From Nostoc punctiforme PCC 73102 (GTDB lineage: Bacteria; Cyanobacteriota; Cyanobacteriia; Cyanobacteriales; Nostocaceae), in NCBI RefSeq assembly GCF_000020025.1, contig NC_010628.1:5610001-5642000 (forward strand): DNA of 32,000 bases, written 5' to 3'. The position numbers and the translations under genes are program-made. The notes beneath the pieces are model-generated. The model searched no databases. It was not told the DNA's origin and worked only from the letters and a program-made list of their open reading frames with translations. Every line of letters begins with the position of its first letter. Position 1 is the first letter of the stretch. Positions 1,538-31,971 of this stretch are shown here, one piece after another.

Positions 1538-3748
1538 TTAAGCAAACTCGTAGCGATTTTTACCCAGGTGCTTGGCACGATACATTGCTGCATCTGCTTG
1601 TTTGATTAAATTTTCACTGTCTTGGCTATTGTATGGGTAGACACTTATGCCAATACTGGCAGAGATTCGGATTGCATAGCCATCCAAAACAATTGGCTTG
1701 GTAATACTGCTTAGGATTTTTTCGGCGACTTTAGCAGCTATCTGGACGTTAGGAATTGCCCGCAAAATTATAGTAAATTCATCGCCACCCAAACGAGAAA
1801 CTGTATCGCTAGCGCGTAAAGAGTTGCTGAGTCTTCCCGCGATAGTCATTAGCAAGCGATCGCCAGTCTCGTGCCCCAGAGTATCATTAACTTGCTTAAA
1901 GCCATCTAAATCAATAAACAGCAGTCCCAATAACAGGTTATTGTGTTGCGCCCAATGTAATGACTCGTAAAGTTGTTCGGCAAAAAATTTGCGATTGGAT
2001 AAACCGGTCAGGGGGTCGTGATACGCCAAATAACGCAAGTGATCTTCTTTGAGTTTTAATTCATTGTTAGACTGAAATAGTTCAGCAGCAGTGCGCTTAA
2101 GTTGTTCCTCCATCAGCTTGCGCTGAGTAATATCTCGGATGACCCCAACTAAAAAGAAATTGCCAGCTGCGTCTTTGTGGAGCGATCGCTTAGTGGCAAT
2201 TTGATGAGTCTGTCCATCTGCATTTGTAAATTCTTCTTCATGTTCCTGGGGTCTTTCAGTTCGGAACACAAGATCATCCTGTTGCCGAAACACATCAGCT
2301 TCATGTTTAGGGAAAAAGTCATAGTCTGACTTCTCAATTAACAACTTATTTGGATAACCGATAAATCGACAATAGGCTTCATTTAAAACAATCCACTGAT
2401 GTTGTTCATTTTTCACAAAAATTGGATCGGGAATCGTGTTGATTACGTGATGCAAAAATTCTTTAGAACGTTTCCACTCTTCCTGGATATGGGCAATATG
2501 ACTGATCATCCAAATAGCTGAACTGCCAAAGCTAAACAATGAGGGAAGGAGCGGTATCCAAAAACCGTATAAAAAAGCAAAGTATGTAGTCAGTGTCAAT
2601 ACAAAGCAAGAAACTAGGATACAAAGCAGACTTCTAGTAGCGTGCCGTATCCGCCATGTCGTCACGGCTCCCAGATAAGACCAGATAAAAATCCACAAGC
2701 ATTCCATCAAGTCAGACCAGAATCTGAATAATGGTCGTCCATCAAGAGCAGCAGATATTAACTCACTAATAAAATAAGCTTGCAGTTGAATTCCAGGTAC
2801 GGGCTTTGCCGTACCCATTAGACTGCTGGAGTAGGGAATAAATACAAAATCCTGAAGACTAGGTGCAGTAGAACCAATCAGTATAATCCGATCTTTGATT
2901 AAGTTTTCTTGGACTTTATCTGCCAGTACATCTTTTATCGATACCTGACGAAAATTACAAATTTCTCTAGATGAACTTTGACATTTCGGTTTGGGAAAAT
3001 TAGCCAAAATTTGATATCCTCTATCATCAGCCCCCACATAAGCACCATCATTAGCCTCGAAACGAGTAAATGCTGCCTTACCTAATTGCAAATACTTAGG
3101 GTTGTTTTTTGCTTTAGTAGGAGTAATTCCTTTTGGCTTTAAATACAATAAAGCCAACTTCAGGGCAAAACTTTCGTGTAACTGCTCATCAACGTGCCAA
3201 TACAACAAACTGCGACGTACTTTACCATCAAGATCGTATAGCACGTTATTAAAGCCAACTTGATCCTTATTCAGTCCCTGTGGAGGCAAAACACTAAAGT
3301 TTTTGTTTTTGTCATTTGCCAATAGTTCAATACCAATTAAATTGGGCATTGACTTATAAGTATTACGCAGTTCTTGATTACCAGGCTGTACTGGCAAATT
3401 TCTGTAGAGATCTAAGCCAATAGCACGGGGTTTGTGGACATTTAATTTTTGCAACAACAGTGCAATTTTCGCATCTGGAATCGGCCACAAACGTATTTCG
3501 TTCAAATATGCTTCATCAATGACTACGATCGTAATACGCTCTTCCGGTGGTTCATTTGGACGTAAGCGAAACAATTGATCCAAAGCTGCAAACTCCAAAG
3601 ATTGCAATAATCCAATGGAGTGCAACAGCACGACGCAGACTGCAACGCTGACGGCAGTAATCAATTCTCTGTGTCCTCGACTAAGCGATTGTTTTAGTCC
3701 AAAGATTAACTTTACAAAACGCTTGTCTAGCTGCTGATTCATTCCCAT
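1538..3748 (-). CDS. CHASE2-PAS-GGDEF sensor diguanylate cyclase
   Basis: 736-aa ORF. An N-terminal TM is followed by a CHASE2-type region (LEFAALDQLFRLRP...). Three hydrophobic helices follow, then a PAS region (INTIPDPIFVKNEQHQWIVLNEAY...). The GGDEF domain has an intact RLGGDEF motif and an RxxD I-site (RASD) at the canonical spacing. Confidence 0.9.
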   Translation of the reverse strand: MGMNQQLDKRFVKLIFGLKQSLSRGHRELITAVSVAVCVVLLHSIGLLQSLEFAALDQLFRLRPNEPPEERITIVVIDEAYLNEIRLWPIPDAKIALLLQKLNVHKPRAIGLDLYRNLPVQPGNQELRNTYKSMPNLIGIELLANDKNKNFSVLPPQGLNKDQVGFNNVLYDLDGKVRRSLLYWHVDEQLHESFALKLALLYLKPKGITPTKAKNNPKYLQLGKAAFTRFEANDGAYVGADDRGYQILANFPKPKCQSSSREICNFRQVSIKDVLADKVQENLIKDRIILIGSTAPSLQDFVFIPYSSSLMGTAKPVPGIQLQAYFISELISAALDGRPLFRFWSDLMECLWIFIWSYLGAVTTWRIRHATRSLLCILVSCFVLTLTTYFAFLYGFWIPLLPSLFSFGSSAIWMISHIAHIQEEWKRSKEFLHHVINTIPDPIFVKNEQHQWIVLNEAYCRFIGYPNKLLIEKSDYDFFPKHEADVFRQQDDLVFRTERPQEHEEEFTNADGQTHQIATKRSLHKDAAGNFFLVGVIRDITQRKLMEEQLKRTAAELFQSNNELKLKEDHLRYLAYHDPLTGLSNRKFFAEQLYESLHWAQHNNLLLGLLFIDLDGFKQVNDTLGHETGDRLLMTIAGRLSNSLRASDTVSRLGGDEFTIILRAIPNVQIAAKVAEKILSSITKPIVLDGYAIRISASIGISVYPYNSQDSENLIKQADAAMYRAKHLGKNRYEFA

Positions 3749-4536: not shown

Positions 4537-5520
4537 TTATTTGAAACGCTTGAAGTCGATAGGCCCTGTGTAACCAGAAACTTTTGCTAGTTCCTCTAAG
4601 TTTTGGACTCCGCTATAGCTTTTACCATTGATGATCCAAGTGGGGAAGCCTTCAATTTTTGCGGCTTTACACAGTTCTGGTTGAGCTTTGAGTCCATCGG
4701 GAGCGCACTCTACCTTAACATCTCTGTTGATTATTTCCTCGGCTTCTTTACCAAAAAGCAGCTTTTGTTCATGGCAGTGAGGACACCAGTAAGCAGTGTA
4801 TTCCTTCGCGCCTACCTTTGCTAGATGGCTTGCTAAGGCCATTTCTGCCTCGCCAGAAGTGGTGGTAACTTCCCAACCGAAGGCTGGGTTAGGATCTTCT
4901 TTGGGATTAAAGGTAATTTTAACGGGTTGTCCTGGTGTTCCAGATGTAACATCTGATTTATTCACGCCAGCATAAACGCCTAAAGTGCCAATCAGCGTTA
5001 CTATACCCACAATTAGGGCGGTAAAGAAGATTTGTCCAATATCCTCCCAAGTACGACCCATAATTGTTAGTACCAAAAGACTCACAGAAAACAAAGCTGA
5101 ACCAATACAGTAAGGACAAACAGCTTTAATTTGAGATGCCAACACGTACATTAAGTAACCGCTAAAGACAGACATAGCGATCGCACCCACCAGCAGCAGC
5201 CACCACGTCCAATTTTCTAATTGTTTGCGGCTATTGTTTTCCCCTGAGTTGAATACCAAGGGAGCTAAAGCAAATATCACCATACTGATGTACGCCAAAA
5301 ACCCAAACAAAGCTAATGGCTGACCAAGAACTGTTGCCCAAGGACTGGAAAGCACATCATTACAGCCCTTAGTACCAGCCTCTGCTACACAAGCTGCACT
5401 GCCTCCTGTTAACTTTTCTATGGTGAGATAACCTGTGATCAAAGCACCACATCCAGCGATCGCGGCAATCAATGGCCGTGACCATTTATGAATCCAAGGA
5501 GTAGAACGACGGCGAATCAT
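4537..5520 (-). CDS. Vitamin K epoxide reductase (VKOR) homologue fused to a thioredoxin-like domain
   Basis: 327 aa with multiple TM helices, a loop cysteine pair (AACVAEAGTKGC) and a CPYC motif in a TM helix. The C-terminal soluble domain carries WCPHC. This is the typical cyanobacterial VKOR-Trx disulfide-forming architecture. Confidence 0.85.
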   Translation of the reverse strand: MIRRRSTPWIHKWSRPLIAAIAGCGALITGYLTIEKLTGGSAACVAEAGTKGCNDVLSSPWATVLGQPLALFGFLAYISMVIFALAPLVFNSGENNSRKQLENWTWWLLLVGAIAMSVFSGYLMYVLASQIKAVCPYCIGSALFSVSLLVLTIMGRTWEDIGQIFFTALIVGIVTLIGTLGVYAGVNKSDVTSGTPGQPVKITFNPKEDPNPAFGWEVTTTSGEAEMALASHLAKVGAKEYTAYWCPHCHEQKLLFGKEAEEIINRDVKVECAPDGLKAQPELCKAAKIEGFPTWIINGKSYSGVQNLEELAKVSGYTGPIDFKRFK

Positions 5521-5526
5521 AAATAT

Positions 5527-5645
5527 TGGGGAATGGGGAATGGGGAATGGGGAACTTGTACTGAGCGTAGTCGTAAAGCCTGCGGCATAGCTACGCTTAG
5601 GGCGTAGCCTCTCGTAGAGAAGTATGGGGAATGGGGATTGGGGAA
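5527..5645. repeat. STRR heptamer array (TGGGGAA x4 ... x3) split by a 70-bp composite dispersed-repeat insert
   Basis: TGGGGAA copies sit at 5527-5554 and 5625-5645. The insert at 5555-5624 contains cttgtactgagcgtagtcg and gcctctcgtagagaagt, modules that recur elsewhere in the window (10361-10402, 14604-14668, 14756-14805). Confidence 0.8.
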
Positions 5646-5693
5646 TAATAATTAATTGTTCGCTTGCTCTCCCTACTCCCCACTCCTTACTTT

Positions 5694-6542
5694 CTAAGAA
5701 TGTAACTTTACTTGTTCTGCTGATTTGCTTTCACCTTTGGAGTTCCAACTGCGACGCGCGGCTTCGACAAATTGACTGACGCGAATTGGGTCAATTGGTT
5801 GCTCTATACGCCCGTGACGTTTCAGAGAACTGGAAACTATTACACCATCTGCGGCCTGCATCAATGTATCAATATTTTCCCAATTTGCCCCACTACCAAT
5901 GAACACTGGCGTGCCAGATGCTGCATCACAAGCTAGTTCCAAATCTTCTAAGTTAGGAGGGCTACCAGTAGCCCAACCAGACAAAATAACTCCGTCTGCT
6001 AAACCCCTTTCAATGGTGTCTTTAACGGCGACTGTGAGATTTGGAGAACTCAAAGGACGGGCGTGTTTTACCAACACATCGGCCAGAATTTTAACATCGC
6101 AGCCTAACTCCCGTCGATAGCGGAGTAGGTGATGGGCTTCTCCTTCAATTAATCCCTGATCGGTTGCCATTACTCCCGTGAGAACGTTGACGCGGATGAA
6201 TTGCGCTTGCACACAGCTAGCGATCGCCATTGCACTTTTGCCGTCGTTTCGCAAAACATTTAAGCCTATAGGCAAAGTCACCAAGTTTTGTATCCGTTGC
6301 ACCACAATGGTCATGGCACTCACAACCACGGGATCGACTTGGTTTTTGGTAAAGGGCGCGTCGAAAAAATTCTCCACAATCAAACCGTCAACCCCTCCGC
6401 TGGCAAGGGCTGCGGCTTCTTGTTCAGCTCGGTCAATCACCGCTTTTAAGCTACCTCCCCAACGGGGTGAGGTAGGCAGTGGTAGCAGGTGAACCACTCC
6501 AATAATCGGTGAGCGAGTTTTAAATAATTGATATAAGTCCAC
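5694..6542 (-). CDS. btpA: BtpA/SgcQ family protein (photosystem I biogenesis protein BtpA)
   Basis: 282 aa. The N-terminus IIGVVHLLPLPTSPRWGG and the motifs GVDGLIVENFFDAPF and LGLNVLRND are characteristic of the BtpA TIM-barrel family. Confidence 0.85.
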   Translation of the reverse strand: MDLYQLFKTRSPIIGVVHLLPLPTSPRWGGSLKAVIDRAEQEAAALASGGVDGLIVENFFDAPFTKNQVDPVVVSAMTIVVQRIQNLVTLPIGLNVLRNDGKSAMAIASCVQAQFIRVNVLTGVMATDQGLIEGEAHHLLRYRRELGCDVKILADVLVKHARPLSSPNLTVAVKDTIERGLADGVILSGWATGSPPNLEDLELACDAASGTPVFIGSGANWENIDTLMQAADGVIVSSSLKRHGRIEQPIDPIRVSQFVEAARRSWNSKGESKSAEQVKLHS

Positions 6543-19478: not shown

Positions 19479-20525
19479 TTAAACGCCAGCATGACCCAGC
19501 GCTAAACCTGTTACCAGCATTCCCAGCACTAGAAAAGGTTGGGCGCTAGCTTGGTACTTAACATCATTCTTCACAGGATCGCGCAAGAAATACATATCTT
19601 GCAAGGTGATTTGCGGGATGATTAATAGTACCAGGATTGCTGCATACAAATTCTCATGGATGCTGACGAGATAAGCTGCGATAAATCCTTGAAATACATC
19701 AATTGTCACTACACAGATCCATGCCGCAGTGGTGATACCAAACATTACGGGTAATGAATTTAATCCTAACTGGCGATCGCCTTCTACACTCTTAAAGTCA
19801 TTGACAATGGCAATACCCAATCCAGCCAAGCTGTAGAACATTGTCAAAATCACAATTGTGGAATTGAGATCGCCAAACAAAGCGTGTCCTGTAGACCAAG
19901 GTAGGGTGATATAGCTTGCACCTAAAGCGTAACTACCTAGCCAGCCGTTTTGCTTGAGTTTCAGGGGAGGTGCAGAATAAATATAGGCGATGAATGAACC
20001 GATAATTGCGATCGCTGTAATTGTCGGGAATTCATGACCAGACCACACATCGAGCGCAAACGCCAAACCATAGCCAGCAATCAGTAATACCCAAATCTGA
20101 ATAATTACCTGGGGTAGGGGAATTGCGCCAGAGGGAATCGGGCGATAGGGTTCATTGATGGCATCGATTTCGCGATCGTAGTAATCGTTAAGGATTTGGG
20201 TGTAACCCGTCATCAATGGCCCAGCCAGCAGCATACAGGTTAATACTTTCAACACATTTTCCAGTGTCCAAGTATAGTTACCCGAAGAAGCCGCACCACA
20301 GACTACGCCCCAAATTAGGGGAATCCAGGTAATCGGCTTCATTAGCTGCAAACGAATTTTCCAAATTGAAGTTTCCCCAGCAGCTGCACCTTTCATCCCC
20401 AGAAGCTGCCTAGTTTTCGCATTGCGATCGGCGGATGCGATCGCTTGCTCATTGGGATTATTTACCACTGAGTCTAATGCCTCGGATGGGTTAGGGTCTG
20501 GGGTAATGGGAGTTGATTCTGACAT
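19479..20525 (-). CDS. chlG: Chlorophyll a synthase (UbiA prenyltransferase family)
   Basis: 348 aa and polytopic, with the UbiA motif NDYYDREIDAINEPYRPIPSGAI. The length and N-terminal extension are typical of cyanobacterial ChlG. Confidence 0.9.
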   Translation of the reverse strand: MSESTPITPDPNPSEALDSVVNNPNEQAIASADRNAKTRQLLGMKGAAAGETSIWKIRLQLMKPITWIPLIWGVVCGAASSGNYTWTLENVLKVLTCMLLAGPLMTGYTQILNDYYDREIDAINEPYRPIPSGAIPLPQVIIQIWVLLIAGYGLAFALDVWSGHEFPTITAIAIIGSFIAYIYSAPPLKLKQNGWLGSYALGASYITLPWSTGHALFGDLNSTIVILTMFYSLAGLGIAIVNDFKSVEGDRQLGLNSLPVMFGITTAAWICVVTIDVFQGFIAAYLVSIHENLYAAILVLLIIPQITLQDMYFLRDPVKNDVKYQASAQPFLVLGMLVTGLALGHAGV

Positions 20526-20540
20526 AATTTTTACTGATTA

Positions 20541-20660
20541 ATTGGGAATTGGGAATTGGGAATTGGGCATTGGGCATTGAGAATTGGGCATTGATGATTA
20601 ACTTTTCCCCATTCCCTACTCCTTATTTCCCATGCCCCATGCCCTATGCCCCATGCCCAT
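20541..20660. repeat. Two opposed STRR arrays (ATTGGGA/ATTGGGC x8 versus CCCCATG/CCCTATG-type) forming a long potential hairpin
   Basis: The heptamers at 20541-20596 are largely complementary to those at 20607-20660. Confidence 0.8.
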
Positions 20661-20670
20661 ACCTGATAAC

Positions 20671-21771
20671 TTAAAACGAAATTATCAAATAATTATTCTG
20701 AAACTTTGCTCCAGCAACGGGTCTGCCACTTAGAGCCGGAGGTAAGGGAATATTCCGTCGCTGGTCTCCTGCTTCTACCGTGACTTCTGGCCCATATTGG
20801 GTGAGCTTAACTTGCTTTTTGTCAAATCCTGGCAAGAATAGGCGTACTTGACGATTGTGGATGTCTATTTCAATTGGTTTAGGAGCCTGTAAAGCTTGTG
20901 CTTCAAAGTTGGGTAGTGCGTCTATCAGTGCTTGCCAGTCAACTGTTGGCGAGTCGGGAACAACGCTCACAGGTAGGGGTATAAATTCCTCTGGCAGATT
21001 GACATTTGTCTCAGGAGATACAAGCAGAACACCACCGACAGTTAAACCAATTTGTTGAGCGCTACCCCATAAATAACGAGCATTTGCTACGTCAATTGGA
21101 TCTCCTGTGGTCACTAAGAAAGCAGCAAGACGCTTCGGATCGGCAAGAGCGGCTCTCCCTTTTTCCAAGAAATTATTGACTTGGTTGGTAGGCCCTGCAA
21201 AATTATCTGCTGTCCAGTTGATATTAAAAAAGCTGCTAATTAGCGGTTGGATTAAGGGCGATTCAGTAATAGTCTTACCCAAATCGGAGTTGACAAATAA
21301 TTGCCGAAATCGCCGGACATACCAACTGAGAGATTCTGGCAAACCCAACATTCGCAACGTTAAAGAGTCACCCGTGCCATCGTAGACGATCGCATCATAT
21401 TTGCCACTGGCATCATATTCGCGGATAGCATTGAGAGCTAGGGCGTTGTCCATCCCTGGCAATACTACCAGTTCTTGACCAAAAACATCTTTGAAGATGG
21501 GCGTGCGGAGATATTGTGCCTCCAGTTTTTTTACTTCGTCCCAGTTGCGCTCCAGCAGTACAGATGCTTGAAACTGTACCGCCTGTAACTTGGGAGCAAT
21601 CTCTTGAGGATCGGCAGCAATGGTAGTACCCAAAAGGATTGATAATGTTGGTTCTGCTTGTCCTGCTAGAAGTACGCGCTTGCCTTGACTTGCCAATAAT
21701 TTGGCGGCGGCGATCGCAATTTTGGTACGAGCGGTGCCGCCTTTGCCCAAAAATGTCAATATTAGAGCCAT
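20671..21771 (-). CDS. ArsA/Get3-like ATPase-fold protein with a degenerate P-loop and a C-terminal HSP20/alpha-crystallin-like domain
   Basis: 366 aa. The N-terminus reads LTFLGKGGTARTKIA where ArsA has GKGGVGKT. The C-terminal ~70 aa (IEIDIHNRQVRLFLPGFDKKQVKLTQYGPEVTVEAG...NNYLIISF) resemble the ArsA-associated HSP20-like domain. Confidence 0.7.
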   Translation of the reverse strand: MALILTFLGKGGTARTKIAIAAAKLLASQGKRVLLAGQAEPTLSILLGTTIAADPQEIAPKLQAVQFQASVLLERNWDEVKKLEAQYLRTPIFKDVFGQELVVLPGMDNALALNAIREYDASGKYDAIVYDGTGDSLTLRMLGLPESLSWYVRRFRQLFVNSDLGKTITESPLIQPLISSFFNINWTADNFAGPTNQVNNFLEKGRAALADPKRLAAFLVTTGDPIDVANARYLWGSAQQIGLTVGGVLLVSPETNVNLPEEFIPLPVSVVPDSPTVDWQALIDALPNFEAQALQAPKPIEIDIHNRQVRLFLPGFDKKQVKLTQYGPEVTVEAGDQRRNIPLPPALSGRPVAGAKFQNNYLIISF

Positions 21772-22483: not shown

Positions 22484-22534
22484 TGGTGTGGAAGTTTTGA
22501 GGATTGACAGCAAAAGCATGATAGAAGAAATTGC
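22484..22534 (+). repeat. Duplicated wzm-wzt junction, copy A
   Basis: ~43 of 49 aligned positions from 22486 are identical to 25254-25304. The match includes agttttgaggattgacagcaaaag, the ATG, and gaagaaattgc. Confidence 0.85.
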
Positions 22535-23756
22535 AATTCCCATCAAAAATCGTTTAGATGCACTAACTGCTCTGCGTGGTTTTGCATGTTTAATGGTAGT
22601 AGTTATTCACTGCAATCCTCCGAGAAATGCGATTTTTTATAAAGGTTACGATCTGAGTTAGCTAACATTTAGTTCCGGGCTGGTAGGTGTCTGGATTTTC
22701 TTTTCTCTGTCAGGATACTTAATGGGTAAAGCTTTTTACACTAAACGTTACACTGCTGATGTCCCAGGAGTTATCAATTTTTGGCGTAACCGATTGTTGA
22801 GAATCTGTCCTCTCTATTATTTTGCTGTATTGATTTCGGCTCTATTCGTTTATACCGATATTCTTAAAATAGAAAACTGGGGATATTTGTTTAGAATAAT
22901 TACGTTTACATACAATCATTCATTGCCACCAATATGGAATGGAGCGATGTGGTCTTTGTCAACAGAAGTACAGTTCTACATACTTGTTCCTTTCTTATAC
23001 ACTTTTCTATTACATCGTTTAGTCAGTAGAAAAGAGATTGTGGTTACATCTATTCTCATCATTTCTATTACTTTTTTTGTCAAGCTTATATTTTGGATTA
23101 CTTTCCGACATCAAATTAGTGAAGAACTTAAATATTTTAATAAATATTCCTATACTCAATTAGTGACAAACATGGATTTGTTTTTATGTGGTTTTATCGT
23201 TAATGGATTACTTTTTTATCAAAGCAAAATAATAACTAACTTTAAAAAGATTAAAGTCAATCAAACATATATGAAATATTTAGCTATTGTTTTGCTCATA
23301 ACTCTTTATATATTGACTGCTCATCATTTATACCATCAAGAGCTATGGAATTTACCAGAGCGTGCTGGCAAAGGTATGAGGACATCTACAACCTTTTTTA
23401 TTTGGCAACCAATAACTGCACTAATCACATCTTTTTTCATATTTGCATTTGAGTTTGACATTTATCAAGCTTCAATAAAAAATGAAGTTTTATCATTTAG
23501 CGTTATTTTAAGAAATCCATTAAGAGTAATGGAGTTGTTTGGGAATTTATCCTATGGTGTCTATATATGGCACATGCCAATTATCGCAAAAATTAATCCT
23601 ATATTTACATCACAAATTCCTATTGAGGCATTTTATATGAGATTAATTGCTACTCTTCTTTTATCAACTTTGTTAGCATCTATTACATATTTTGTAATAG
23701 AAATTCCATGCAGTAGGTGGAAGACCTACCAAAAGATTGAAATTGGAAACAATTAG
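22518..23756 (+). pseudogene. Acyltransferase family 3 (OafA/YrhL-like O-acyltransferase) interrupted by an in-frame TAG at 22659-22661
   Basis: ATG 22518 is in frame with the tracked ORF 22722-23756. The upstream part encodes MIEEIAIPIKNRLDALTALRGFACLMVVVIHC..., the typical acyltransferase_3 start. After the single TAG the frame continues LTFSSGLVGVWIFFSLSGYLMGKAF. The protein is polytopic, and the DNA is AT-rich (spot count 17 G+C in 23161-23220). Confidence 0.75.
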
Positions 23757-24252: not shown

Positions 24253-25131
24253 GTGAACAAGGAAGCGACAATTGTACGAACGATCCGAAGTTTTGTACGT
24301 AAAGCAGGTAATATAAGGCGAATCCTGCCGATAAATGAACGGTTGTGGGCAAAGTTTGACTTGCTGAGAACTTTGGTGCGTCGGGATTTAGAGGCGCGTT
24401 ACAAGGGTTCTGTTTTGGGCAACTTGTGGCCTTTGCTAAATCAGCTATCACAGTTACTGATTTATACTTATGTTTTTTCCACCGTGCTGAAGGTGAAGCT
24501 AACTACTCTCAAGGGTTTACCAGCAAACGATTTCACCTTTGGTTTGTGGCTATTTGCAGGGTTACTTCCTTGGATTGCTTTTACGGGTGGTTTAATGCAG
24601 TCCGCTAATTCGGTACTTGGACAACCGAATTTAGTCAAGAAGGTGGTGTTTCCCCTAACTTTATTACCTCTAGTGCCAGTTTTGTCAACATTCATCGAGA
24701 GTTCTTTTGGTTTAATGGCATTGATTTTTTTCGTGGCGGTAAATACTCATACTTTACATGCTACCTTAGCGCTACTACCCTTGGTTTGGCTAACGCAGTT
24801 ATTGCTAACAGCAGGGTTAGGCTATTTAGCAGCAGCGCTAACGGTGTTTTTGCGAGATATTCCGCAGACTTTAGGAGTGATTTTAAATATTTGGTTTTAT
24901 GTGACACCCCTTGTTTATCCAGCATCAGCAATTCCAGAACAATGGCGGAGTTTGGTATTCTGGTTAAATCCAATAGCAGCGATCGCTGAAGTTTATCGTG
25001 ACATAGTTTTAGTTGGAGAAGTCAAACACTGGGGCGAGTGGGGAGTTTCCTCGCTAATTGCAGTTGTAGTGTTTTTTGGGGGATTGTGGTGTTATCGCCG
25101 CCTGCGTCCAGCATTCGCCGATGTATTGTGA
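24253..25131 (+). CDS. wzm: ABC-2 type polysaccharide export permease (Wzm/TagG-like)
   Basis: 292 aa with a GTG start. It has the LVRRDLEARYKGSVLGNLWPLLNQL signature and six hydrophobic helices, and sits directly upstream of the cognate ATPase. Confidence 0.85.
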   Translation: MNKEATIVRTIRSFVRKAGNIRRILPINERLWAKFDLLRTLVRRDLEARYKGSVLGNLWPLLNQLSQLLIYTYVFSTVLKVKLTTLKGLPANDFTFGLWLFAGLLPWIAFTGGLMQSANSVLGQPNLVKKVVFPLTLLPLVPVLSTFIESSFGLMALIFFVAVNTHTLHATLALLPLVWLTQLLLTAGLGYLAAALTVFLRDIPQTLGVILNIWFYVTPLVYPASAIPEQWRSLVFWLNPIAAIAEVYRDIVLVGEVKHWGEWGVSSLIAVVVFFGGLWCYRRLRPAFADVL

Positions 25132-25213
25132 ACTGACAGTTTGATAGGATGGAGTCATTTAGCTAGAGATGCCAGCATTAATTATGTAGTGACATCTGGC
25201 AAAATAAAATGAG

Positions 25214-25243
25214 TCCGTAGGCGTAGCCCGTCGTAGACATCGC
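25214..25243. repeat. Small dispersed repeat, uninterrupted copy (tccgtaggcgtagcccgtcgtagacatcgc)
   Basis: It is identical to the two halves of the split copy at 14587-14681, and lies in the wzm-wzt spacer. Confidence 0.75.
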
Positions 25244-25253
25244 ATTTTAGCTT

Positions 25254-25304
25254 TAGTGTGTGAGTTTTGAGGATTGACAGCAAAAGTATGGGTGAAGAAA
25301 TTGC
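25254..25304 (+). repeat. Duplicated wzm-wzt junction, copy B
   Basis: See 22484-22534. This copy contains the functional wzt start. Confidence 0.85.
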
Positions 25305-26634
25305 TATTTCCCTTAAGAATGTCTCGAAGTGTTTCAAACGGTATAGCCGACCTGTAGATAGGCTAAAAGAAGTTTTGCTACCTGGTAAGAGTAGAACAGA
25401 TGAATTTTGGGCACTTCGGGATATCAACATTGAGATTCCCAAAGGACAAACAGTTGGAATCGTTGGACGCAACGGTTCTGGAAAAAGTACATTGCTACAA
25501 ATTATAGTGGGAACCCTCACACCATCCAGTGGTGATGTGCGAGTCGTAGGTCGAGTTTCTGCTTTATTAGAATTAGGAAGTGGTTTTAACCCAGAGTTTA
25601 CTGGCAGGCAAAATGTCTTTTTTAACGGACAATTGCTAGGATTAAGTCAAAAACAAATCGAAGACAGATTTGATGATATTGTCGCTTTTGCCGATATCGG
25701 CGATTTCATCGAGCAACCTGTTAAAACTTATTCTAGTGGGATGTATGTCCGCTTGGCATTTTCTGTTGCAGTCAATGTCGATCCAGAGATTTTAATTGTT
25801 GACGAAGCACTTGCTGTTGGAGATGTTGTATTTCAACATCGTTGTATGCGGCGAATGCGTGCAATGATGGATTCTGGAGTTACAACATTATTTGTTTCCC
25901 ACGATTCAGGTGCCATCAAAACATTGTGTAATTCAGCCGTGATGATTCATGACGGAAAAATACATACGACAGGATTGCCTAATACCGTTATAATTGAATA
26001 TTTAAAATTAGTTACAGAACTTGAATTAGGTTTAGCACAAGATATTACAGTTAACTCCCAACAGCAAGTAAATCCTGTTGTAGATAACGCAATACAAGCT
26101 TCAGATTCTCCAAATTTTGATATTGAATCTCCGAGTTCCAATTTCAGCAAGGCAACACGCAGAGGAAGTGGAAAAGCCAGAATCGAAAGCGTAAAAATCC
26201 TGAATCAATTAGGTCATTATGCTGGCGAAAGTCCAATCTTTGCATTTAATGAAGAAGTAACATTAATTGTAAATTTAAAAGTTTATTACACCATCAAAAG
26301 TTGTATTGTTGGCTTTCATGTATGTGACAAAAATGGTAATGAGGTAATTGGTAGCAATACTTTAGAAGAAAATATCAAAATAGATAAATTAGAATCAGGG
26401 GAAGAAATAGAAATTAAGTTTAAATTTAATTTACCTCTTCGACCTAGTTCTTATAGCTTAACAGTTGCTGGGGCTGAAAGCTATGAATCTCTTAGCTTTG
26501 ACTGGATTGATAATATAATGGTTTTTCAAATTTTACCCCCAGACACTGGAAAGCTCATTCATGCTTTAGTCCATCAACCGATGGTTGTTAAAGTAAACAA
26601 AAAAGTTTTACCAACTGTAGTGACACCAGCTTAA
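25288..26634 (+). CDS. wzt: Polysaccharide ABC exporter ATP-binding protein (Wzt/TagH-like) with a C-terminal glycan-binding-type extension
   Basis: ATG 25288 (MGEEIAISLKNVSK) is preferred over the tracked TTG 25267. It has Walker A GRNGSGKST, the signature YSSGMYVRL, and Walker B ILIVDEAL. An extra ~150-aa beta-rich C-terminal domain (ARIESVKILN...FDWIDNIMVFQI) sits where Wzt carries its O-PS cap-binding domain. Confidence 0.85.
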   Translation: MGEEIAISLKNVSKCFKRYSRPVDRLKEVLLPGKSRTDEFWALRDINIEIPKGQTVGIVGRNGSGKSTLLQIIVGTLTPSSGDVRVVGRVSALLELGSGFNPEFTGRQNVFFNGQLLGLSQKQIEDRFDDIVAFADIGDFIEQPVKTYSSGMYVRLAFSVAVNVDPEILIVDEALAVGDVVFQHRCMRRMRAMMDSGVTTLFVSHDSGAIKTLCNSAVMIHDGKIHTTGLPNTVIIEYLKLVTELELGLAQDITVNSQQQVNPVVDNAIQASDSPNFDIESPSSNFSKATRRGSGKARIESVKILNQLGHYAGESPIFAFNEEVTLIVNLKVYYTIKSCIVGFHVCDKNGNEVIGSNTLEENIKIDKLESGEEIEIKFKFNLPLRPSSYSLTVAGAESYESLSFDWIDNIMVFQILPPDTGKLIHALVHQPMVVKVNKKVLPTVVTPA

Positions 26635-26662: not shown

Positions 26663-29600
26663 ATGAATAAAGATTGGTCAAAAGATTATCCATCGGCTGA
26701 AAATCTTACAGAAGAAGGTTTGGGGGAAAACCACGTTTTGAGGAAAATGCTAAACCTCATTGGAGACAATCAGCGAGTAGTAGACTTTGGGTGTGCGACT
26801 GGTTACTTTGCTCAGTTACTTAGTAGAAAAGGCTGTATTGTCACAGGAGTAGAGATAAATCCAGATGCTGCTAAAGTTGCCGAAGAGTACTGTAAAGAGG
26901 TAATAGTTGCCGACTTGGATTTTGTTTCTGTTACAGAAATATTGCCTAGCCAGGAGTTCGATGTTGCAGTGTTTGGAGATGTTTTGGAACATCTGCGAAA
27001 CCCTTGGAGAATTTTGGAAGAAACCAAGCAGATATTAAAAAAAGATGGATATGTAGTTGCTTCTATTCCAAATATTGCTCACGGTGCAATTCGCTTATCT
27101 TTACTACAAGGTAAATTTGAATATACAGAATTAGGGATTTTAGATAATACTCATCTGAGGTTTTTTACCAGAAAAACGGTTGAGGAGTTATTTGAAATAC
27201 CAGGATATTTAGTAAATATTGCCGATCGGACAAAACTAGAAGTTTTTTCAGAGAGTTCTTTGATACCTCAAAATAAGAGAGAACAATTCGACAGTAATAC
27301 TATTAAACAAATTGAAGAAGATAAAGATGCTGACACTTTACAGTTTATTATTCGGGCAGATCCTTGGACTATAGAAGGAGAATATGCTGCAATGAGCGAA
27401 GGCTTCTCTAAGCTGTTGGAAGAATCGGAGCAATTGAAATCTCAACTGCATTCAACACAAGCAGAACTGGATCAAGCCCAAGCTCAATTACAGGAGAATC
27501 AGCTTCAGTTGGAGCAATCGCAGTCTCATCTACAGCAAACCCAGACAGAATTGGAGCGATCGCAGTCTCATCTACAACAAACCCAGACAGAATTGGAGCG
27601 ATCGCAGTCTCATCTACAGCAAACCCAGACAGAATTGGAGCGATCGCAGTCTCATCTACAGCAAACCCAGACAGAATTGGAGCGATCGCAGTCTCATCTA
27701 CAGCAAACCCAGACAGAATTGGAGCGATCGCAGTCTCATCTACAGCAAACCCAGACAGAATTGGAGCGATCGCAGTCTAAATTAATATATGCTCAAACTT
27801 ATATTACCGCAATGCAAACCAGTAAATTCTGGAAGTTAAGGACAGCTTGGTTCAGAGTTAAGGGTTTCCTGAATTTGGCTCCCGCCTCAGAAATGTTTAC
27901 ACATAACAACGAGTTAAACATAGTTAATAAAACAGAAGATATCCTGAAAACTTCTAACTCTCTTCAAGAAGATTTATCCACTGATAACAGGTTAAAAATG
28001 TTTGCTTTTATTAGTGGGTGTCCGGGAGATTCTTATCGTTATCGATGTCATCATCAAGCGGAAATCCTAAAGTACCTTGGCTATACAGTTGATGTATATG
28101 AACCAATGGTATTTTTATACAATGAACTTATCACTAAATATAAAATAATTATTGCTCATCGAGTTCCCCATACTGACGAATTTGAACAGTTTGTTTTCAA
28201 TGCGGAAAAACTAGACATAAAAGTTATTTTTGATACTGACGACTTAGTGTTTGATCCATCCCGTATTTCTCAAATTCATGCTTGTACGCTAATGGATCAA
28301 CAAGAGAAGACACTATACGAAAATGGAGTAAAGCGATATCGTAAATCCATGTCTTTATGTGACTACATAACAGTAAGTACCAACAAACTCCAGCAAGAAA
28401 TAGAACAAAGTTTTCCTAATAAAGTTTCGATAATTTTACGCAACCGTATAAGTAATGAGATGGAACAAGGAGCAATCGAAGCTCGTAAGAGTTATGTTCC
28501 TAATGATGGGATGCTTCGGATTGCCTATTTTAGTGGTACTAAAACACATGTTAAAGATTTTGCAGAATGTGTTTTAGCCTTAAAAAGCATTCTCACAGAA
28601 TTTCCTTATGTCCGCCTCATGGTAGTTGGACATCTGGATATCCCAGAAGCATTACAGGAAGTTGCCTCACAAATAGAGTGTGTTCCATATATGCCTTGGA
28701 GAGATTTACCAAAATTGTACCGGAAAGTTGATATTAACCTTGCACCCTTGGAAAAAAATAATGACTTTACTGAATCAAAAAGTGAACTCAAATATTTTGA
28801 AGCAGCGCTTTTATCTGTCCCAACAATTGCTTCGGATACAAGTAGTTTTCGTTTCGCTATTCAAGATGGAGTTAATGGACTACTGTGTAATAATTTGGAT
28901 GAATGGAAAGATGCTCTGTATCAACTGGTAACTAACCAGAAGTTGAGACAGGAAATGGGGCATAAAGCCTTTGAAGATGTAAATTCTCGCTATTTGACAC
29001 GGATTGCAGCCTCAGAAAGTATGCAGAAGTGGAAATATTTATTGGGGGGAAGTTTATCACCCAATAAACCTCTTTCAATTGCTTTTATTCTGCGAGCGCC
29101 GATTGCTCAAACGGGTGGAGGCTATAAGCATATTTTTAATTTAGCTTATTATCTGGCAGCTAAAGAACACACTGTCAATATCTATATTGAACCAATTGCT
29201 CATCTAACCAATTTTACTACTGAACAAGTAAGAGATTTTTGCGAGGAGAATTTTGGGAAGAGTAATGCTATCATTCATTGTGGTCATGCTGGAATTTTAG
29301 AATCAGATATAGCGATCGCTACAAATTGGCCTACAGCTTATGTTGTTGAGCAACTAGTTAATACCCGATTCAAAGCATACTATGTTCAAGATTATGAACC
29401 TTACTTTTATAAATCTGAAGAGGCTAACTTTACTCAAGCAGAAGCCACTTATAATTTACCTTTAAATATAATTACTTTAGGCAAGTATTTGGCAGAGGTA
29501 TTGAGCCAAAGAAATAAAATTGACTATCCGTATGTAGATTTTCCTTTAGGTGAAGTATTTTTAGCTGAAAATCCTATTTTGGATCGTCATTTAAGTACAA

Positions 29601-30121
29601 CAAAACCTTGTTCAATACTATTTTTTGCTCGTCCTCATATCCCCAGGCGTAATTTTACTTTGGGAGTAGAATCATTAAATAAATTGTATCAGCACAATTC
29701 TGATGTGCAAATCAAGTTGTATGGACTGGAAGAAGATTTAGAACTTCCATTTCCTTACGAAAATTTGGGAGTTTTAACTCAAGCTGAAACAGCAGAAGCA
29801 ATGCGCTCATCTGATATACATCTATCTTTTTCTATGACAAATATAAGCACAGTTGTTTTTGAAGCAATGGCTTGTGGCTGTGCCACAGTCGAAGTGGATG
29901 TACCTCCAGTACGATCAATGGTTAAGGAAGGAACTTGTCTATTATGTGAACCTAATTCACAAGCTGTTTTTAATGCATTAATGGATCTCATAAATAATGC
30001 TGGAATGAGGCAAAATATTGCTACATCCGGCTATGAATCAGTGAAGGATCTAACGTTACAAAATATGTGTCTGAAATTTGAGAAAATTCTTATGGAATAT
30101 AGCTTTAGAGTTAAAAGTTGA
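26663..30121 (+). CDS. Multidomain glycan assembly protein: SAM methyltransferase, long coiled coil, amphipathic segment, GT-B glycosyltransferase, and a WsaF-like GT-B glycosyltransferase
   Basis: 1152 aa. The methyltransferase motifs are VVDFGCATGYF, FGDVLEHL and KKDGYVVASIPN. A Q/E/L-rich helix spans ~aa 236-385 and includes 6x SQSHLQQTQTELER. It is followed by MQTSKFWKLRTAWFRVKGF. The first GT module carries ESKSELKYFEAALLSVPTIAS, and the second carries FFARPHIPRRNF and VVFEAMACGCATVE. Confidence 0.85.
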   Translation: MNKDWSKDYPSAENLTEEGLGENHVLRKMLNLIGDNQRVVDFGCATGYFAQLLSRKGCIVTGVEINPDAAKVAEEYCKEVIVADLDFVSVTEILPSQEFDVAVFGDVLEHLRNPWRILEETKQILKKDGYVVASIPNIAHGAIRLSLLQGKFEYTELGILDNTHLRFFTRKTVEELFEIPGYLVNIADRTKLEVFSESSLIPQNKREQFDSNTIKQIEEDKDADTLQFIIRADPWTIEGEYAAMSEGFSKLLEESEQLKSQLHSTQAELDQAQAQLQENQLQLEQSQSHLQQTQTELERSQSHLQQTQTELERSQSHLQQTQTELERSQSHLQQTQTELERSQSHLQQTQTELERSQSHLQQTQTELERSQSKLIYAQTYITAMQTSKFWKLRTAWFRVKGFLNLAPASEMFTHNNELNIVNKTEDILKTSNSLQEDLSTDNRLKMFAFISGCPGDSYRYRCHHQAEILKYLGYTVDVYEPMVFLYNELITKYKIIIAHRVPHTDEFEQFVFNAEKLDIKVIFDTDDLVFDPSRISQIHACTLMDQQEKTLYENGVKRYRKSMSLCDYITVSTNKLQQEIEQSFPNKVSIILRNRISNEMEQGAIEARKSYVPNDGMLRIAYFSGTKTHVKDFAECVLALKSILTEFPYVRLMVVGHLDIPEALQEVASQIECVPYMPWRDLPKLYRKVDINLAPLEKNNDFTESKSELKYFEAALLSVPTIASDTSSFRFAIQDGVNGLLCNNLDEWKDALYQLVTNQKLRQEMGHKAFEDVNSRYLTRIAASESMQKWKYLLGGSLSPNKPLSIAFILRAPIAQTGGGYKHIFNLAYYLAAKEHTVNIYIEPIAHLTNFTTEQVRDFCEENFGKSNAIIHCGHAGILESDIAIATNWPTAYVVEQLVNTRFKAYYVQDYEPYFYKSEEANFTQAEATYNLPLNIITLGKYLAEVLSQRNKIDYPYVDFPLGEVFLAENPILDRHLSTTKPCSILFFARPHIPRRNFTLGVESLNKLYQHNSDVQIKLYGLEEDLELPFPYENLGVLTQAETAEAMRSSDIHLSFSMTNISTVVFEAMACGCATVEVDVPPVRSMVKEGTCLLCEPNSQAVFNALMDLINNAGMRQNIATSGYESVKDLTLQNMCLKFEKILMEYSFRVKS
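27518..27778 (+). repeat. Tandem 42-bp repeat, 6 full copies plus 9 bp, in frame within the coiled coil
   Basis: The units begin at 27518, 27560, 27602, 27644, 27686 and 27728. I see only one substitution (cag to caa in unit 2). Each unit encodes SQSHLQQTQTELER and contains one HIP1 site (gcgatcgc). Confidence 0.95.
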
Positions 30122-30185
30122 ATTAAGTATAAATAAAGAAGGAAGCTATTGATTTTAAGTTTAAAAGTTGGAGTCAGTAGAAAAG

Positions 30186-30920
30186 ATGATTACTAGAGTA
30201 GATTATCAGTTAAATCGCTTGCAATTTTTAAATAAATTAGTGAATTTAGAAAATGCAGAAGGTTTAGAAATAGGAGCTTGCGATTTACCAACTGTTACCA
30301 AAGAGGTTGGCAAATGTGAGTTTGCCGATTTTCGTTCATCGGAAGAAATGATTGCTCTTTGGAACCTTCCTGCTGAAACAGTAATGCCGATCAAATATAT
30401 TCTCCAAAGAGATATTAAAGTTCACCTTCAAATTCACAAAAAATTTGATTTTGTAATTCTCTGTCATGTAATTGAGCATATTCCTAATGTAATTAGCTAT
30501 ATTAAAGATTTACATAATTTGCTGAAACCAGGAGGACTCCTAATTATTGCCTGTCCAGATAAGAGAATAACTTTTGATGCTTCAAGACCCTCAACCACAA
30601 TAGAACACTTACTCGACGATTATTACAATAACTGTAATTATCCTTCATTAGAACATATCTTGGAATTTGGCAAAGTTATATCTGAAGATTTAAAGCAGAA
30701 AAGCATAAAATCACCTAAAGAGTTTTATAAATGGGGATGCGAAAATTTTGAATCTGGATTTGCAGATCCTCATTGCCACGTTTGGACAGATGAAGAGTTT
30801 TTCACTCAAATGGAATACTTGATCGATGGGGATATTATTGAAGGCTTGGAAATTGTTGATAAACAATACAATGATGGTGCTTATAATGAATTCCTTATCG
30901 CTTTCAAATCTTCTGAATGA
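30186..30920 (+). CDS. Class I SAM-dependent methyltransferase (stand-alone)
   Basis: ATG 30186 is preferred over the tracked TTG 30168. It has LEIGACDLP (motif I-like), FDFVILCHVIEHIPN, and LKPGGLLIIACPDK (post-II/III region). Confidence 0.7.
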   Translation: MITRVDYQLNRLQFLNKLVNLENAEGLEIGACDLPTVTKEVGKCEFADFRSSEEMIALWNLPAETVMPIKYILQRDIKVHLQIHKKFDFVILCHVIEHIPNVISYIKDLHNLLKPGGLLIIACPDKRITFDASRPSTTIEHLLDDYYNNCNYPSLEHILEFGKVISEDLKQKSIKSPKEFYKWGCENFESGFADPHCHVWTDEEFFTQMEYLIDGDIIEGLEIVDKQYNDGAYNEFLIAFKSSE

Positions 30921-31041: not shown

Positions 31042-31971
31042 ATGAAGTCTCAGTATAAGATAGCAGCTTATATAACTGCTTATGAAGATCCAAAAGCAGT
31101 TATGGATTGTCTTAATGCTATTGCTTGCCAATCCTCCTTTGCGATTGACAAGTTGCTGATATTAGATAACTCCACAAAAAAGCCTTTATTGCATCTCACA
31201 AATAAAGAAAATATTTTAATCAAGTTTCATCCAGAAAATATAGGAATTGCGGCAGGATTAACTTGGGCAATCAAATGGGCTATCGAACAAGAATATGACT
31301 TTTTATGGTCTTTTGATCAAGATAGTGTTCCGGCTGCAAACTGTCTAGAAATTTTGCTGAAAACTTATTATCAATTGTCTCAACAAGATAATTATAAAAT
31401 TGGCATTATTGCTCCTACTCCTTCTGATCCTAGAACGAGTAAGGTTATAGAAGGTGCAGTTTTTTTTAACGATCATTTTCTAGCGCTTAAACATAATAGT
31501 AGTGTTGATTTTTATGAATGTGATTCACCGATTACATCAGGATCTCTAATTTCATTAGCTGCCGCTAAAACCATTTCTCCTCCTTGTGTTGACTTATTTA
31601 TTGATGGTATTGACCTTGATTATGGATTGCGATTAAGGCAAAAGGGCTTTCATAACCTAATTGCTACTAAAGCTATTATGCACCACAATTTTGGTAGTCC
31701 TATTCAAGTAAAATTTATGAATAAATATCGCTACATCCAACAATATTCAGCTTTACGTTATTACTATATCTGTCGTAATCATAGTTATTTGGAAACTCGC
31801 TTTTCTCAAGGTTACTATCACTTCACTAGCTTAATGCGGCGAATAAAATATATGCTGCTTCAAATTCTTTTTATTATGCTATATGATTTAGAAGATAAAC
31901 AATTAAAAATATGGGCTTGTTTATTAGGGACTTATCGGGGCTTAATTGGAAATATTAGTAAAACTTGGTAA
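31042..31971 (+). CDS. Glycosyltransferase family 2 protein (rhamnosyltransferase-like)
   Basis: 309 aa. The N-terminal AAYITAYED...LDNSS-type region, the DQDS acidic motif (FDQDSVP) and IDGIDLDYGLR are typical of GT2 GT-A enzymes in O-antigen loci. Confidence 0.8.
   Translation: MKSQYKIAAYITAYEDPKAVMDCLNAIACQSSFAIDKLLILDNSTKKPLLHLTNKENILIKFHPENIGIAAGLTWAIKWAIEQEYDFLWSFDQDSVPAANCLEILLKTYYQLSQQDNYKIGIIAPTPSDPRTSKVIEGAVFFNDHFLALKHNSSVDFYECDSPITSGSLISLAAAKTISPPCVDLFIDGIDLDYGLRLRQKGFHNLIATKAIMHHNFGSPIQVKFMNKYRYIQQYSALRYYYICRNHSYLETRFSQGYYHFTSLMRRIKYMLLQILFIMLYDLEDKQLKIWACLLGTYRGLIGNISKTW

Follow-up and report, generated by a model that had tools for sequence, protein, structure and literature searches.

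In the O9a system of Escherichia coli, the trimeric coiled coil of WbdD holds the capping domains of this enzyme ~200 Å from the membrane, and insertions into the coil raise the modal length of the glycan chain while truncations lower it (PMC5082667). In every characterised Klebsiella system the terminator sits on a coiled coil, at its distal end, and in O12 WbbB and O7 ORF6 the polymerase glycosyltransferase (GT) modules reside on the terminator's own polypeptide (PMC11231755). A biochemical characterisation of Klebsiella O7 ORF6, which combines a methyltransferase-kinase, a coiled coil and a pair of GT modules, appeared in 2024, and its authors also report cyanobacterial orthologues of the protein's N-terminal part, while the coil of WbbB is summarised in the same paper as having been shown to act as a ruler (PMC11231755). 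WsaE from Geobacillus (2008) is outlined in its source as an N-terminal 2-O-methyltransferase that caps the chain, joined to two rhamnosyltransferase domains and encoded in a wzm-wzt-rml cluster (PMC2943079). Here we describe a gene of the cyanobacterium Nostoc punctiforme PCC 73102, located in a 32,000-nucleotide stretch of its chromosome (NC_010628.1, positions 5,610,001 to 5,642,000; hereafter the window), that encodes a predicted methyltransferase, a long predicted coiled coil and two predicted GTs as one polypeptide and lies immediately downstream of, and on the same strand as, wzm and wzt, which encode an ATP-binding cassette (ABC) transporter. We consider it likely, from its anatomy and by analogy with the systems above, that this fusion protein acts as an integrated polymerase, ruler and terminator for an ABC transporter-dependent glycan.

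The open reading frame of the fusion gene (26663..30121, + strand) begins with ATG, 28 nucleotides after the wzt reading frame ends at 26634, as a preliminary description of the window had noted, and its 1152-residue product is 100% identical to N. punctiforme PCC 73102 ACC82896.1 / WP_012410857.1. The domain order proposed in that description, namely a methyltransferase, a helix, a basic-aromatic segment, a GT-B fold GT and a WsaF-like GT-B, was borne out by Pfam annotation, AlphaFold and Foldseek. An AlphaFold monomer model built from a 28-sequence alignment (mean predicted local distance difference test score, pLDDT, 76.9) consists of a methyltransferase fold, a long helix, a short helix, a disordered segment and two successive GT-B folds with the boundaries given in Table 1, and a Foldseek comparison of the protein with the PDB returned 3cc8, WsaF 2x0f (including its complex with dTDP-beta-L-Rha) and GT4 enzymes. 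The N-terminal methyltransferase, hereafter the head, matches Pfam Methyltransf_23 at residues 29-178 (E 4e-21), along with Methyltransf_11, 12, 25 and 31, and is related to 3cc8, a putative methyltransferase from Bacillus cereus, by sequence (E 5e-34) and by structure (Foldseek TM 0.75). Alignment of orthologues revealed that residues D41, G43, G47, G62, E109 and H110 of the head are conserved. The extended coil, recognised as a run free of proline and glycine, by its heptads and as an AlphaFold helix, thus separates the putative terminator from the polymerase: a predicted chain-modifying domain with a conserved S-adenosylmethionine (SAM) binding motif is placed at the coil end distal to the polymerase, and both GT-B modules lie C-terminal to the coil on the same polypeptide according to Pfam, AlphaFold and Foldseek.

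This arrangement resembles four described systems in different respects. Like the N. punctiforme protein, Klebsiella O7 ORF6 has a terminator with a methyltransferase, a central coil and two C-terminal GTs and is encoded beside wzm and wzt, in a locus that has rml genes and directs a rhamnose-containing polymer; ORF6, however, is 1414 residues long, has a kinase, places an immunoglobulin-like binding module between methyltransferase and coil, adds a methyl-phosphate cap and uses GT2 (GT-A) modules, whereas in N. punctiforme, when the two are compared by description, the methyltransferase runs straight into the coil at residues 234-237, a kinase is lacking and both GTs have GT-B folds of GT4 and WsaF type. 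WsaE, judged by its published domain description, shares the N-terminal methyltransferase and two GTs in one polypeptide. In Geobacillus stearothermophilus WsaF is a separate protein (PMC3898925), while N. punctiforme has a WsaF-like module fused to the rest, and the glycan made by WsaE and WsaF is attached to the S-layer protein of a Gram-positive bacterium. The WbbB protein of Klebsiella O12 and Raoultella has the same order of terminator, coiled coil and two polymerase GTs, but its terminator is a GT99 beta-Kdo transferase rather than a methyltransferase; Pfam and AlphaFold found no GT99 domain in the N. punctiforme protein and no GT domain N-terminal to its coil. The WbdD proteins of E. 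coli O8 and O9a combine an N-terminal methyltransferase cap enzyme with a ~20 nm coil, a membrane-binding foot and a cap that is read by a Wzt module (PMC5082667), but WbdD has no GT modules and recruits a separate polymerase, WbdA, and the O9a enzyme also has a kinase. A homology between the head and WbdD was considered and rejected, since the matches to 4azw, 4uw0 and 4azs (E 2e-3 to 4e-3 over ~100 residues) are weaker than those to many unrelated methyltransferases. The preliminary description had held such fusions to be uncharacterised, which WsaE (PMC2943079) and O7 ORF6 (PMC11231755) refute. Cyanobacterial homologues number in the hundreds; 548 proteins match the fusion protein at E <= 1e-20, most of them cyanobacterial methyltransferase-coil-GT proteins. 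The N. punctiforme protein is thus an uncharacterised addition to a known class of terminator-ruler-polymerase proteins, distinguished by its predicted combination of a head that is a methyltransferase only, without a kinase, and a polymerase made of GT4-type and WsaF-type GT-B modules.

The coil had been described as a proline- and glycine-free heptad helix of ~150 residues, and this held on closer analysis: the run lacking both residues spans 153 residues (248-400), with a chance of ~2e-3 per protein of such composition, the heptad register QxxLxxx (a = Gln, d = Leu) continues without a break from ~252 to 392 for ~20 heptads, and AlphaFold models a helix over residues 237-386. A canonical alpha-helix rises ~0.148 nm per residue. 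The modelled helix would therefore span ~22 nm, in keeping with an earlier estimate of roughly 20 nm between the methyltransferase and the GT end, and each 14 residues would add ~2.1 nm. A near-perfect tandem array, which the preliminary description does not mention, encodes approximately 90 of the coil residues; each of its 42-bp units specifies 14 residues, or two heptads, with the sequence SHLQQTQTELERSQ. Every unit contains the cyanobacterial HIP1 octamer GCGATCGC, which encodes E-R-S-Q of each coil unit and occurs in six copies from 27556 to 27766 at exact 42-bp spacing. The HIP1 octamer is present in 35 copies in the 32-kb window against 0.19 expected from base composition, and the consensus unit of the coil array in Nodularia likewise contains it. 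The N. punctiforme array has exactly one unit more than those of Nostoc sp. LEGE 12447 and UIC 10630. All full-length N. punctiforme units have CAT (His) where the other two strains have AAT (Asn), and the last unit, diverged in LEGE 12447 and UIC 10630, is homogenised in N. punctiforme; both features are signs of concerted evolution.

The length of the coil varies among relatives in steps of whole heptads. When six groups of >90%-identical orthologues were compared, coil insertions and deletions in all six were multiples of 7 residues (7, 14, 28, 42 and 70), and in five of the six they were the only internal ones; the exceptions are P0134 (82% identity), which also has insertions or deletions in the head, and P0124, which differs near the C-terminus. 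Protein lengths in the N. punctiforme group are 1152, 1138 and 1124 residues, and a Nostoc linckia / punctiforme group, at 99.5% identity, has members that lack 3 and 4 units (42 and 56 residues). In the Nodularia sphaerocarpa group the coil is 14 residues longer with 100% identity elsewhere, two further groups are 14 residues longer at 99.8% and 99.9% identity, another is 7 residues longer at 99.9% identity and one more is 70 residues shorter. Two Nodularia sphaerocarpa assemblies have no substitutions over 15.5 kb and are one 42-bp unit apart (11.4 versus 10.4 copies). Of 121 homologues, 41 have a coil with near-identical tandem units of 7, 14 or 28 residues, the highest unit number, up to 14 copies, being that of Lyngbya aestuarii. 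We then measured the spacing between the motif [TS][LIVM]QF at the end of the methyltransferase and the motif at the foot of the coil (below) in the 69 homologues that have both. This revealed a range of 63-242 residues and a spacing of 1 mod 7 in 53 of the 69 (binomial p 3e-31), or in 18 of 31 when distinct spacings are counted once (p 2e-8). The spacer thus varies ~four-fold in length, yet head and base stay in the same heptad phase, which fits a rigid, continuous coiled coil of evolvable length; this heptad-quantised spacing is independent evolutionary evidence for the coil as a putative rigid spacer of fixed phase.

At the foot of the coil lies the basic-aromatic base motif, SKFWKLRTAWFRVKGF, with the core SKFWKLR, a net charge of +5 over residues 385-404 and four aromatic residues. 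S387, K388, F389, W390, R393, W396 and F397 are invariant in 11 orthologues, a second alignment revealed that the motif is nearly invariant across proteins with differing head and polymerase types, and a spirochaete homologue retains a degenerate version, SRSWRITR, at its coil end. From its conservation, charge and aromatic residues we propose that the motif may bind the membrane interface, or dock to a partner, where the ruler has its foot. It is followed by a variable linker, predicted to be disordered, that tethers the polymerase to the base of the ruler and is the point at which alternative polymerases are swapped, since the homology of proteins with the same head and another polymerase ends at residues 405-412.

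Comparison with these relatives also revealed that the head can be exchanged. Joined to the shared coil, base motif and GT4-WsaF polymerase (53-75% identity), we found a Sulfotransfer_3 domain in P0008, P0017 and P0005, an extra, third GT4 in P0012, and unrelated methyltransferases in P0003, P0009 and P0016, so that the alternative heads include two other methyltransferase types. Conversely, the same methyltransferase, coil and base motif are joined to GT2-type polymerases in dozens of cyanobacteria, and Spirochaetes, Myxococcota, Binatia and Alphaproteobacteria have versions of the GT4-WsaF pair that are 40-47% identical. The breakpoints of homology, at residues 253-258 and 405-412 of the fusion protein, mark out the coil and base motif as a common chassis. 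In a metagenomic locus with a sulfotransferase head (L085), a gene for adenosine 5'-phosphosulfate (APS) kinase (5389-5958) lies between wzt and the fusion gene in a cluster that is otherwise Nostoc-like; a supply of the sulfate donor PAPS beside this head implies a sulfate-capped version of the same polymer. In Allocoleopsis franciscana (CP003630, L086 3083-9834), the polymerase occurs in a GT-headed version with three GT4 modules and a short coil, preceded by a short Wzt that lacks a binding module and adjoined by a gene of the Wzy_C / O-antigen-ligase family; this locus may link the polymerase family to lipopolysaccharide (LPS), and may be a variant whose export does not need a cap to be read.

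The carbohydrate-binding module of Wzt varies together with the head. Between N. punctiforme and Nodularia, which have the same head and different polymerases, the binding module is 72% and the ATPase 84% identical; the corresponding values are 70% and 80% for two loci with the second methyltransferase type and 54% and 80% for two sulfotransferase-headed loci. Between head types the binding module falls to 17-26% identity and the ATPase to 63-72%, even though the polymerases are 53-75% identical. The binding module therefore appears to track the type of head and not that of the polymerase, as would be expected if it reads the product of the head. The ratio of binding module to ATPase identity is 0.25-0.39 between head types, against 0.67-0.87 between species that share a head. 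Orthologues of the stand-alone methyltransferase encoded downstream of the fusion gene adjoin sulfotransferase-headed fusions in L084 and L085, and because this enzyme is kept whatever the head, it is the better candidate for methylation within the chain or the adaptor, and the fused enzyme the better candidate for the cap.

The nature of the polymer was approached through the two GT modules. Module 1 matches Glyco_trans_1_4 and Glycos_transf_1 at residues 617-770 (E 5e-25), with Foldseek matches to MshA, PimA, BshA and HepE. Module 2 matches WsaF_N at 878-939 (28.3 bits) and WsaF_C at 985-1080 (50.2 bits; both cut-offs 27), as well as Glyco_trans_1_2, and is related to WsaF by phmmer (2x0d, E 3e-7) and by Foldseek (2x0e/2x0f, E 3e-12). 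WsaF residues D171, E173, F176, R249, R254 and E333 are conserved in module 2 and Y247 is conservatively replaced by F, with WsaF residues beyond 322 aligned by eye from the EX7E motif. The use of WsaF active-site residues as proof of a dTDP-rhamnose donor was dropped because their conservation is only partial, and the assignment of rhamnose therefore rests mainly on the rml genes found in the syntenic Nostoc sp. LEGE 12447 cluster (L006) and in other related loci. In L006, rmlA-like, rmlC and rmlD genes downstream of the fusion gene make a rhamnose-containing polymer likely.

What is observed at this locus and among its relatives is the anatomy of the domains, the gene context, the exchange of heads, the co-variation of the Wzt module and the heptad-quantised length of the coil. 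In the mechanism that we favour, the GT4 and WsaF-like modules would alternately extend a chain linked to undecaprenyl diphosphate at the inner face of the cytoplasmic membrane, with dTDP-L-rhamnose probably used for at least one linkage. The base motif would hold a parallel coiled coil by its foot, either at the membrane or at the transporter, and the coil would keep the SAM-dependent methyltransferase away from the polymerase, such that only chains long enough to reach it would be O-methylated at their non-reducing end. This methyl cap would stop extension and would be read by the binding module of Wzt, leading to export of the chain through Wzm/Wzt. Here we infer the activities, cap chemistry, oligomeric state, membrane anchoring and ruler effect by analogy, carrying them over from O9a WbdD, O12 WbbB, O7 ORF6 and WsaE. 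Of the proposal in the preliminary description that this is a WbbB-style machine with a methyl cap in the style of O8 WbdD, the context, anatomy, head exchange and Wzt co-variation are in agreement, while homology to WbdD (E 2e-3) is not.

Several observations weigh against this mechanism. The AlphaFold monomer assigns the coil helix a low pLDDT of 43-60, and Gln, present at each a position, makes the core of the coil polar. The base motif does not form a textbook amphipathic helix: its hydrophobic moment as an ideal helix is 0.22, ranking 579 of 1135 windows, in contrast to the membrane-binding amphipathic helix at the foot of WbdD, and of the earlier label only the basic-aromatic part was upheld, the amphipathic part being unsupported by this measure. 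The WsaF donor-site residues K302, H326 and Y329 are replaced by V, N and T in module 2. The ATPase domain of Wzt also tracks the head to some extent (80-84% versus 63-72%), and some of the co-variation could stem from wzt being physically linked to the 5' end of the fusion gene and not from functional coupling; since divergence between head types is far larger for the binding module than for the ATPase, linkage alone is the less apt explanation. Short-read assemblies may mis-size arrays, so that some differences in copy number could be errors. In addition, deletion of wzm, wzt or the cluster methyltransferase in Synechocystis altered exopolysaccharide and not O-antigen (PMC3769361).

This last result bears most directly on the identity of the product, which may be another exported glycan, such as a released or capsular exopolysaccharide, a sheath or a protein-linked glycan made by the same type of machinery, instead of an LPS O-antigen. 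We regard such a product as a real possibility, though not the favoured one. Beyond the phenotype of the homologous Synechocystis mutants, the glycan made by the closest characterised enzymes, WsaE and WsaF, belongs to an S-layer protein (PMC2943079), and no waaL-type ligase gene lies within the 32-kb window. Against this, the homologous polymerase of Allocoleopsis adjoins the ligase-family gene described above, and several orthologues are labelled 'O-antigen biosynthesis protein' in their source databases, by annotation only; in either case the question concerns the product and not the mechanism. An explanation that would change the mechanism, and that we consider quite improbable, is that the fused methyltransferase is an in-chain tailoring enzyme, for example producing an O-methyl-rhamnose in each repeat, with the coil acting only in oligomerisation or as a scaffold and chain length being set otherwise, such as by the ratio of transporter to polymerase or by the stand-alone methyltransferase acting as the cap enzyme. 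The cluster does encode two methyltransferases, either of which could cap, a review of cyanobacterial glycans yields nothing on termination, and no Nostoc glycan is known to have a defined cap chemistry. It is the fused enzyme, however, that is replaced together with the Wzt binding module, while the stand-alone one stays when the head is a sulfotransferase; there is no obvious need to place an in-chain enzyme 22 nm from the polymerase, and the heptad phase, which 53 of 69 homologues preserve from head to base, points to a rigid spacer of fixed geometry and not a simple oligomerisation tag.

For the array, near-perfect repetition over ~90 residues suggests that unequal recombination or slippage adds and removes two-heptad units, and we infer that this would make the length of the ruler, and presumably the modal length of the glycan, a fast-evolving trait. 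We tentatively propose that the array acts as a tuning locus, in which a HIP1-containing, in-frame repeat changes unit number faster than the locus accumulates substitutions and provides Nostocales with a heritable, reversible series of rulers in ~2-nm steps that shifts the modal length of the glycan. Repeat number may instead drift neutrally, any multiple of 7 residues keeping the coil intact and the glycan being hardly affected, or be partly an artefact of assembly, which we think unlikely, if far from negligible. The almost four-fold range in spacing (63-242 residues) suggests weak constraint on absolute length, short reads do not readily give the size of 270-480 bp arrays of 42-bp units, and the Nodularia pair one unit apart shows no other difference across 15.5 kb and could represent a single strain. 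In contrast, the 1138-residue form is found in three independent assemblies, the record behind the 1152-residue form is the chromosome of N. punctiforme PCC 73102, assembled as one 8.2-Mb contig, and the strain-specific substitutions in every full-length unit reflect concerted evolution, which is not something an assembler produces. Moreover, engineered insertions and deletions in the WbdD coil shift modal chain length (PMC5082667). A full-text literature search, whose coverage did not extend to the survey of Mann et al. 2019, found no paper that ties tandem repeats to glycan rulers, and no report of a WbdD coil built from tandem repeats was found, with no direct check made of WbdD itself; a heptad-quantised, hypervariable array as the code of a ruler looks new, and no priority is claimed.

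As a single protein, the N. punctiforme fusion is an ordinary member of its class, and its greater value is as an entry point to the control of surface glycan length, which a 2015 review of cyanobacterial glycans does not cover. N. punctiforme ATCC 29133 is genetically tractable, and the possible tuning of glycan length by tandem repeats is directly testable in such a cyanobacterium. The natural allelic series, comprising the 1124-, 1138- and 1152-residue forms and the one-unit difference in Nodularia, would allow the ruler hypothesis to be tested beyond Enterobacteria with no need to engineer the protein. If tuning occurs, shifts in glycan length could serve escape from phages, grazers or host lectins, tandem-repeat variation would act on a cytoplasmic measuring device and not on a surface molecule, and the coil and base motif would form a recombination hub that shuffles heads, with the matching Wzt binding module, and polymerases. 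The exchangeable heads, predicted to add methyl, sulfate (with APS kinase) or glycosyl groups, would together with the co-varying Wzt modules form a natural parts list for glyco-engineering.

Table 1. Features of the fusion gene and of the neighbouring glycan genes, in window positions.
Feature	Position	Strand	Residues or size	Basis
wzm, ABC-2 permease of the glycan exporter	24253..25131	+		Pfam ABC2_membrane E 8e-22
wzt, ATPase with C-terminal carbohydrate-binding module	25267..26634	+		Pfam ABC_tran + Wzt_C E 4e-32
Fusion gene: methyltransferase, coiled coil, base motif, GT4, WsaF-like GT	26663..30121	+	1152 aa	
Class I SAM methyltransferase domain, proposed chain-terminating capping enzyme	26735..27364	+	aa 25-234	Pfam, PDB, Foldseek
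Continuous alpha-helix, proposed ruler, predicted parallel coiled coil of ~22 nm	27371..27820	+	aa 237-386	AlphaFold, heptads
Tandem array	27509..27778	+	42 bp x 6.4 copies, 98% identity	Tandem Repeats Finder
Basic-aromatic base motif	27821..27868	+	aa 387-402	Alignments, AlphaFold helix 388-402
Variable linker, predicted disordered, tethering polymerase to ruler base	27869..27994	+	aa 403-444	pLDDT 31-40
GT-B module 1, GT4-like	27995..29047	+	aa 445-795	Pfam, AlphaFold, Foldseek
GT-B module 2, WsaF-like, probable L-rhamnosyltransferase	29075..30106	+	aa 805-1148	Pfam, AlphaFold, Foldseek, phmmer
Stand-alone class I methyltransferase	30168..30920	+	250 aa	Pfam Methyltransf_23/11
GT2 glycosyltransferase, probable adaptor or primer enzyme	31042..31971	+	309 aa	Pfam Glycos_transf_2

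The genes around the fusion gene are listed in Table 1. The start codon of wzm is uncertain, its orthologues being 281 residues long, and wzm occupies the same position in L001, L006, L082, L084 and L085. The likely true start of wzt is the ATG at 25288 (MGEEIAIS); the Wzt_C module covers residues 296-435 (about 26152-26571), and the closest solved relative of Wzt is the full-length O-antigen transporter Wzt of Aquifex (8dku/7k2t, E 2e-80). The stand-alone methyltransferase matches only the C-terminal half of class I methyltransferase profiles, and its matching stretch (residues 84-209) exceeds the covered profile region in length, suggesting an insertion; candidate substrates are an in-chain sugar, the adaptor or a terminus that receives a second methyl group. 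The glycan cluster extends past the end of the window after the GT2 gene. In Nostoc sp. LEGE 12447, whose fusion protein is 94% identical, the order of genes from ubiA/arsA to this GT2 gene is the same as in the window, and further genes of the cluster follow there, for GT2, GT4, an RmlA-like nucleotidyltransferase, RmlC and RmlD.

The site itself is shared more widely. The series ubiA, arsA, tsr0524-like, wzm, wzt and fusion gene, the first three of which lie at 19479-21771 in the window, also occurs in Nodularia, in Coleofasciculus and, from arsA onward as far as the stretch was read, in a metagenomic relative (L082, L084, L085), and the GT modules of Nodularia differ; the locus looks like a conserved but cassette-variable glycan site. 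With its fixed site and variable content, including varying GT modules and heads, it resembles enterobacterial O-antigen loci. The cluster has a GC content of 0.31-0.39, lower than the 0.42-0.47 of the housekeeping genes upstream. Between 22298 and 22545 lies a relic of the 3' end of a second wzm, a spacer and the first ~12 codons of wzt, with ~73% identity to 24963-25330, which runs into an acyltransferase_3 gene broken by an in-frame stop (22488-22661, then 22722-23756). The segment 22298-23756, with a local GC content of 0.31, is missing in both close relatives and looks like the scar of a cassette replacement. Approximately 20 kb upstream of the glycan cluster, the window also encodes a CHASE2-PAS-GGDEF diguanylate cyclase (1538-3748, - strand).

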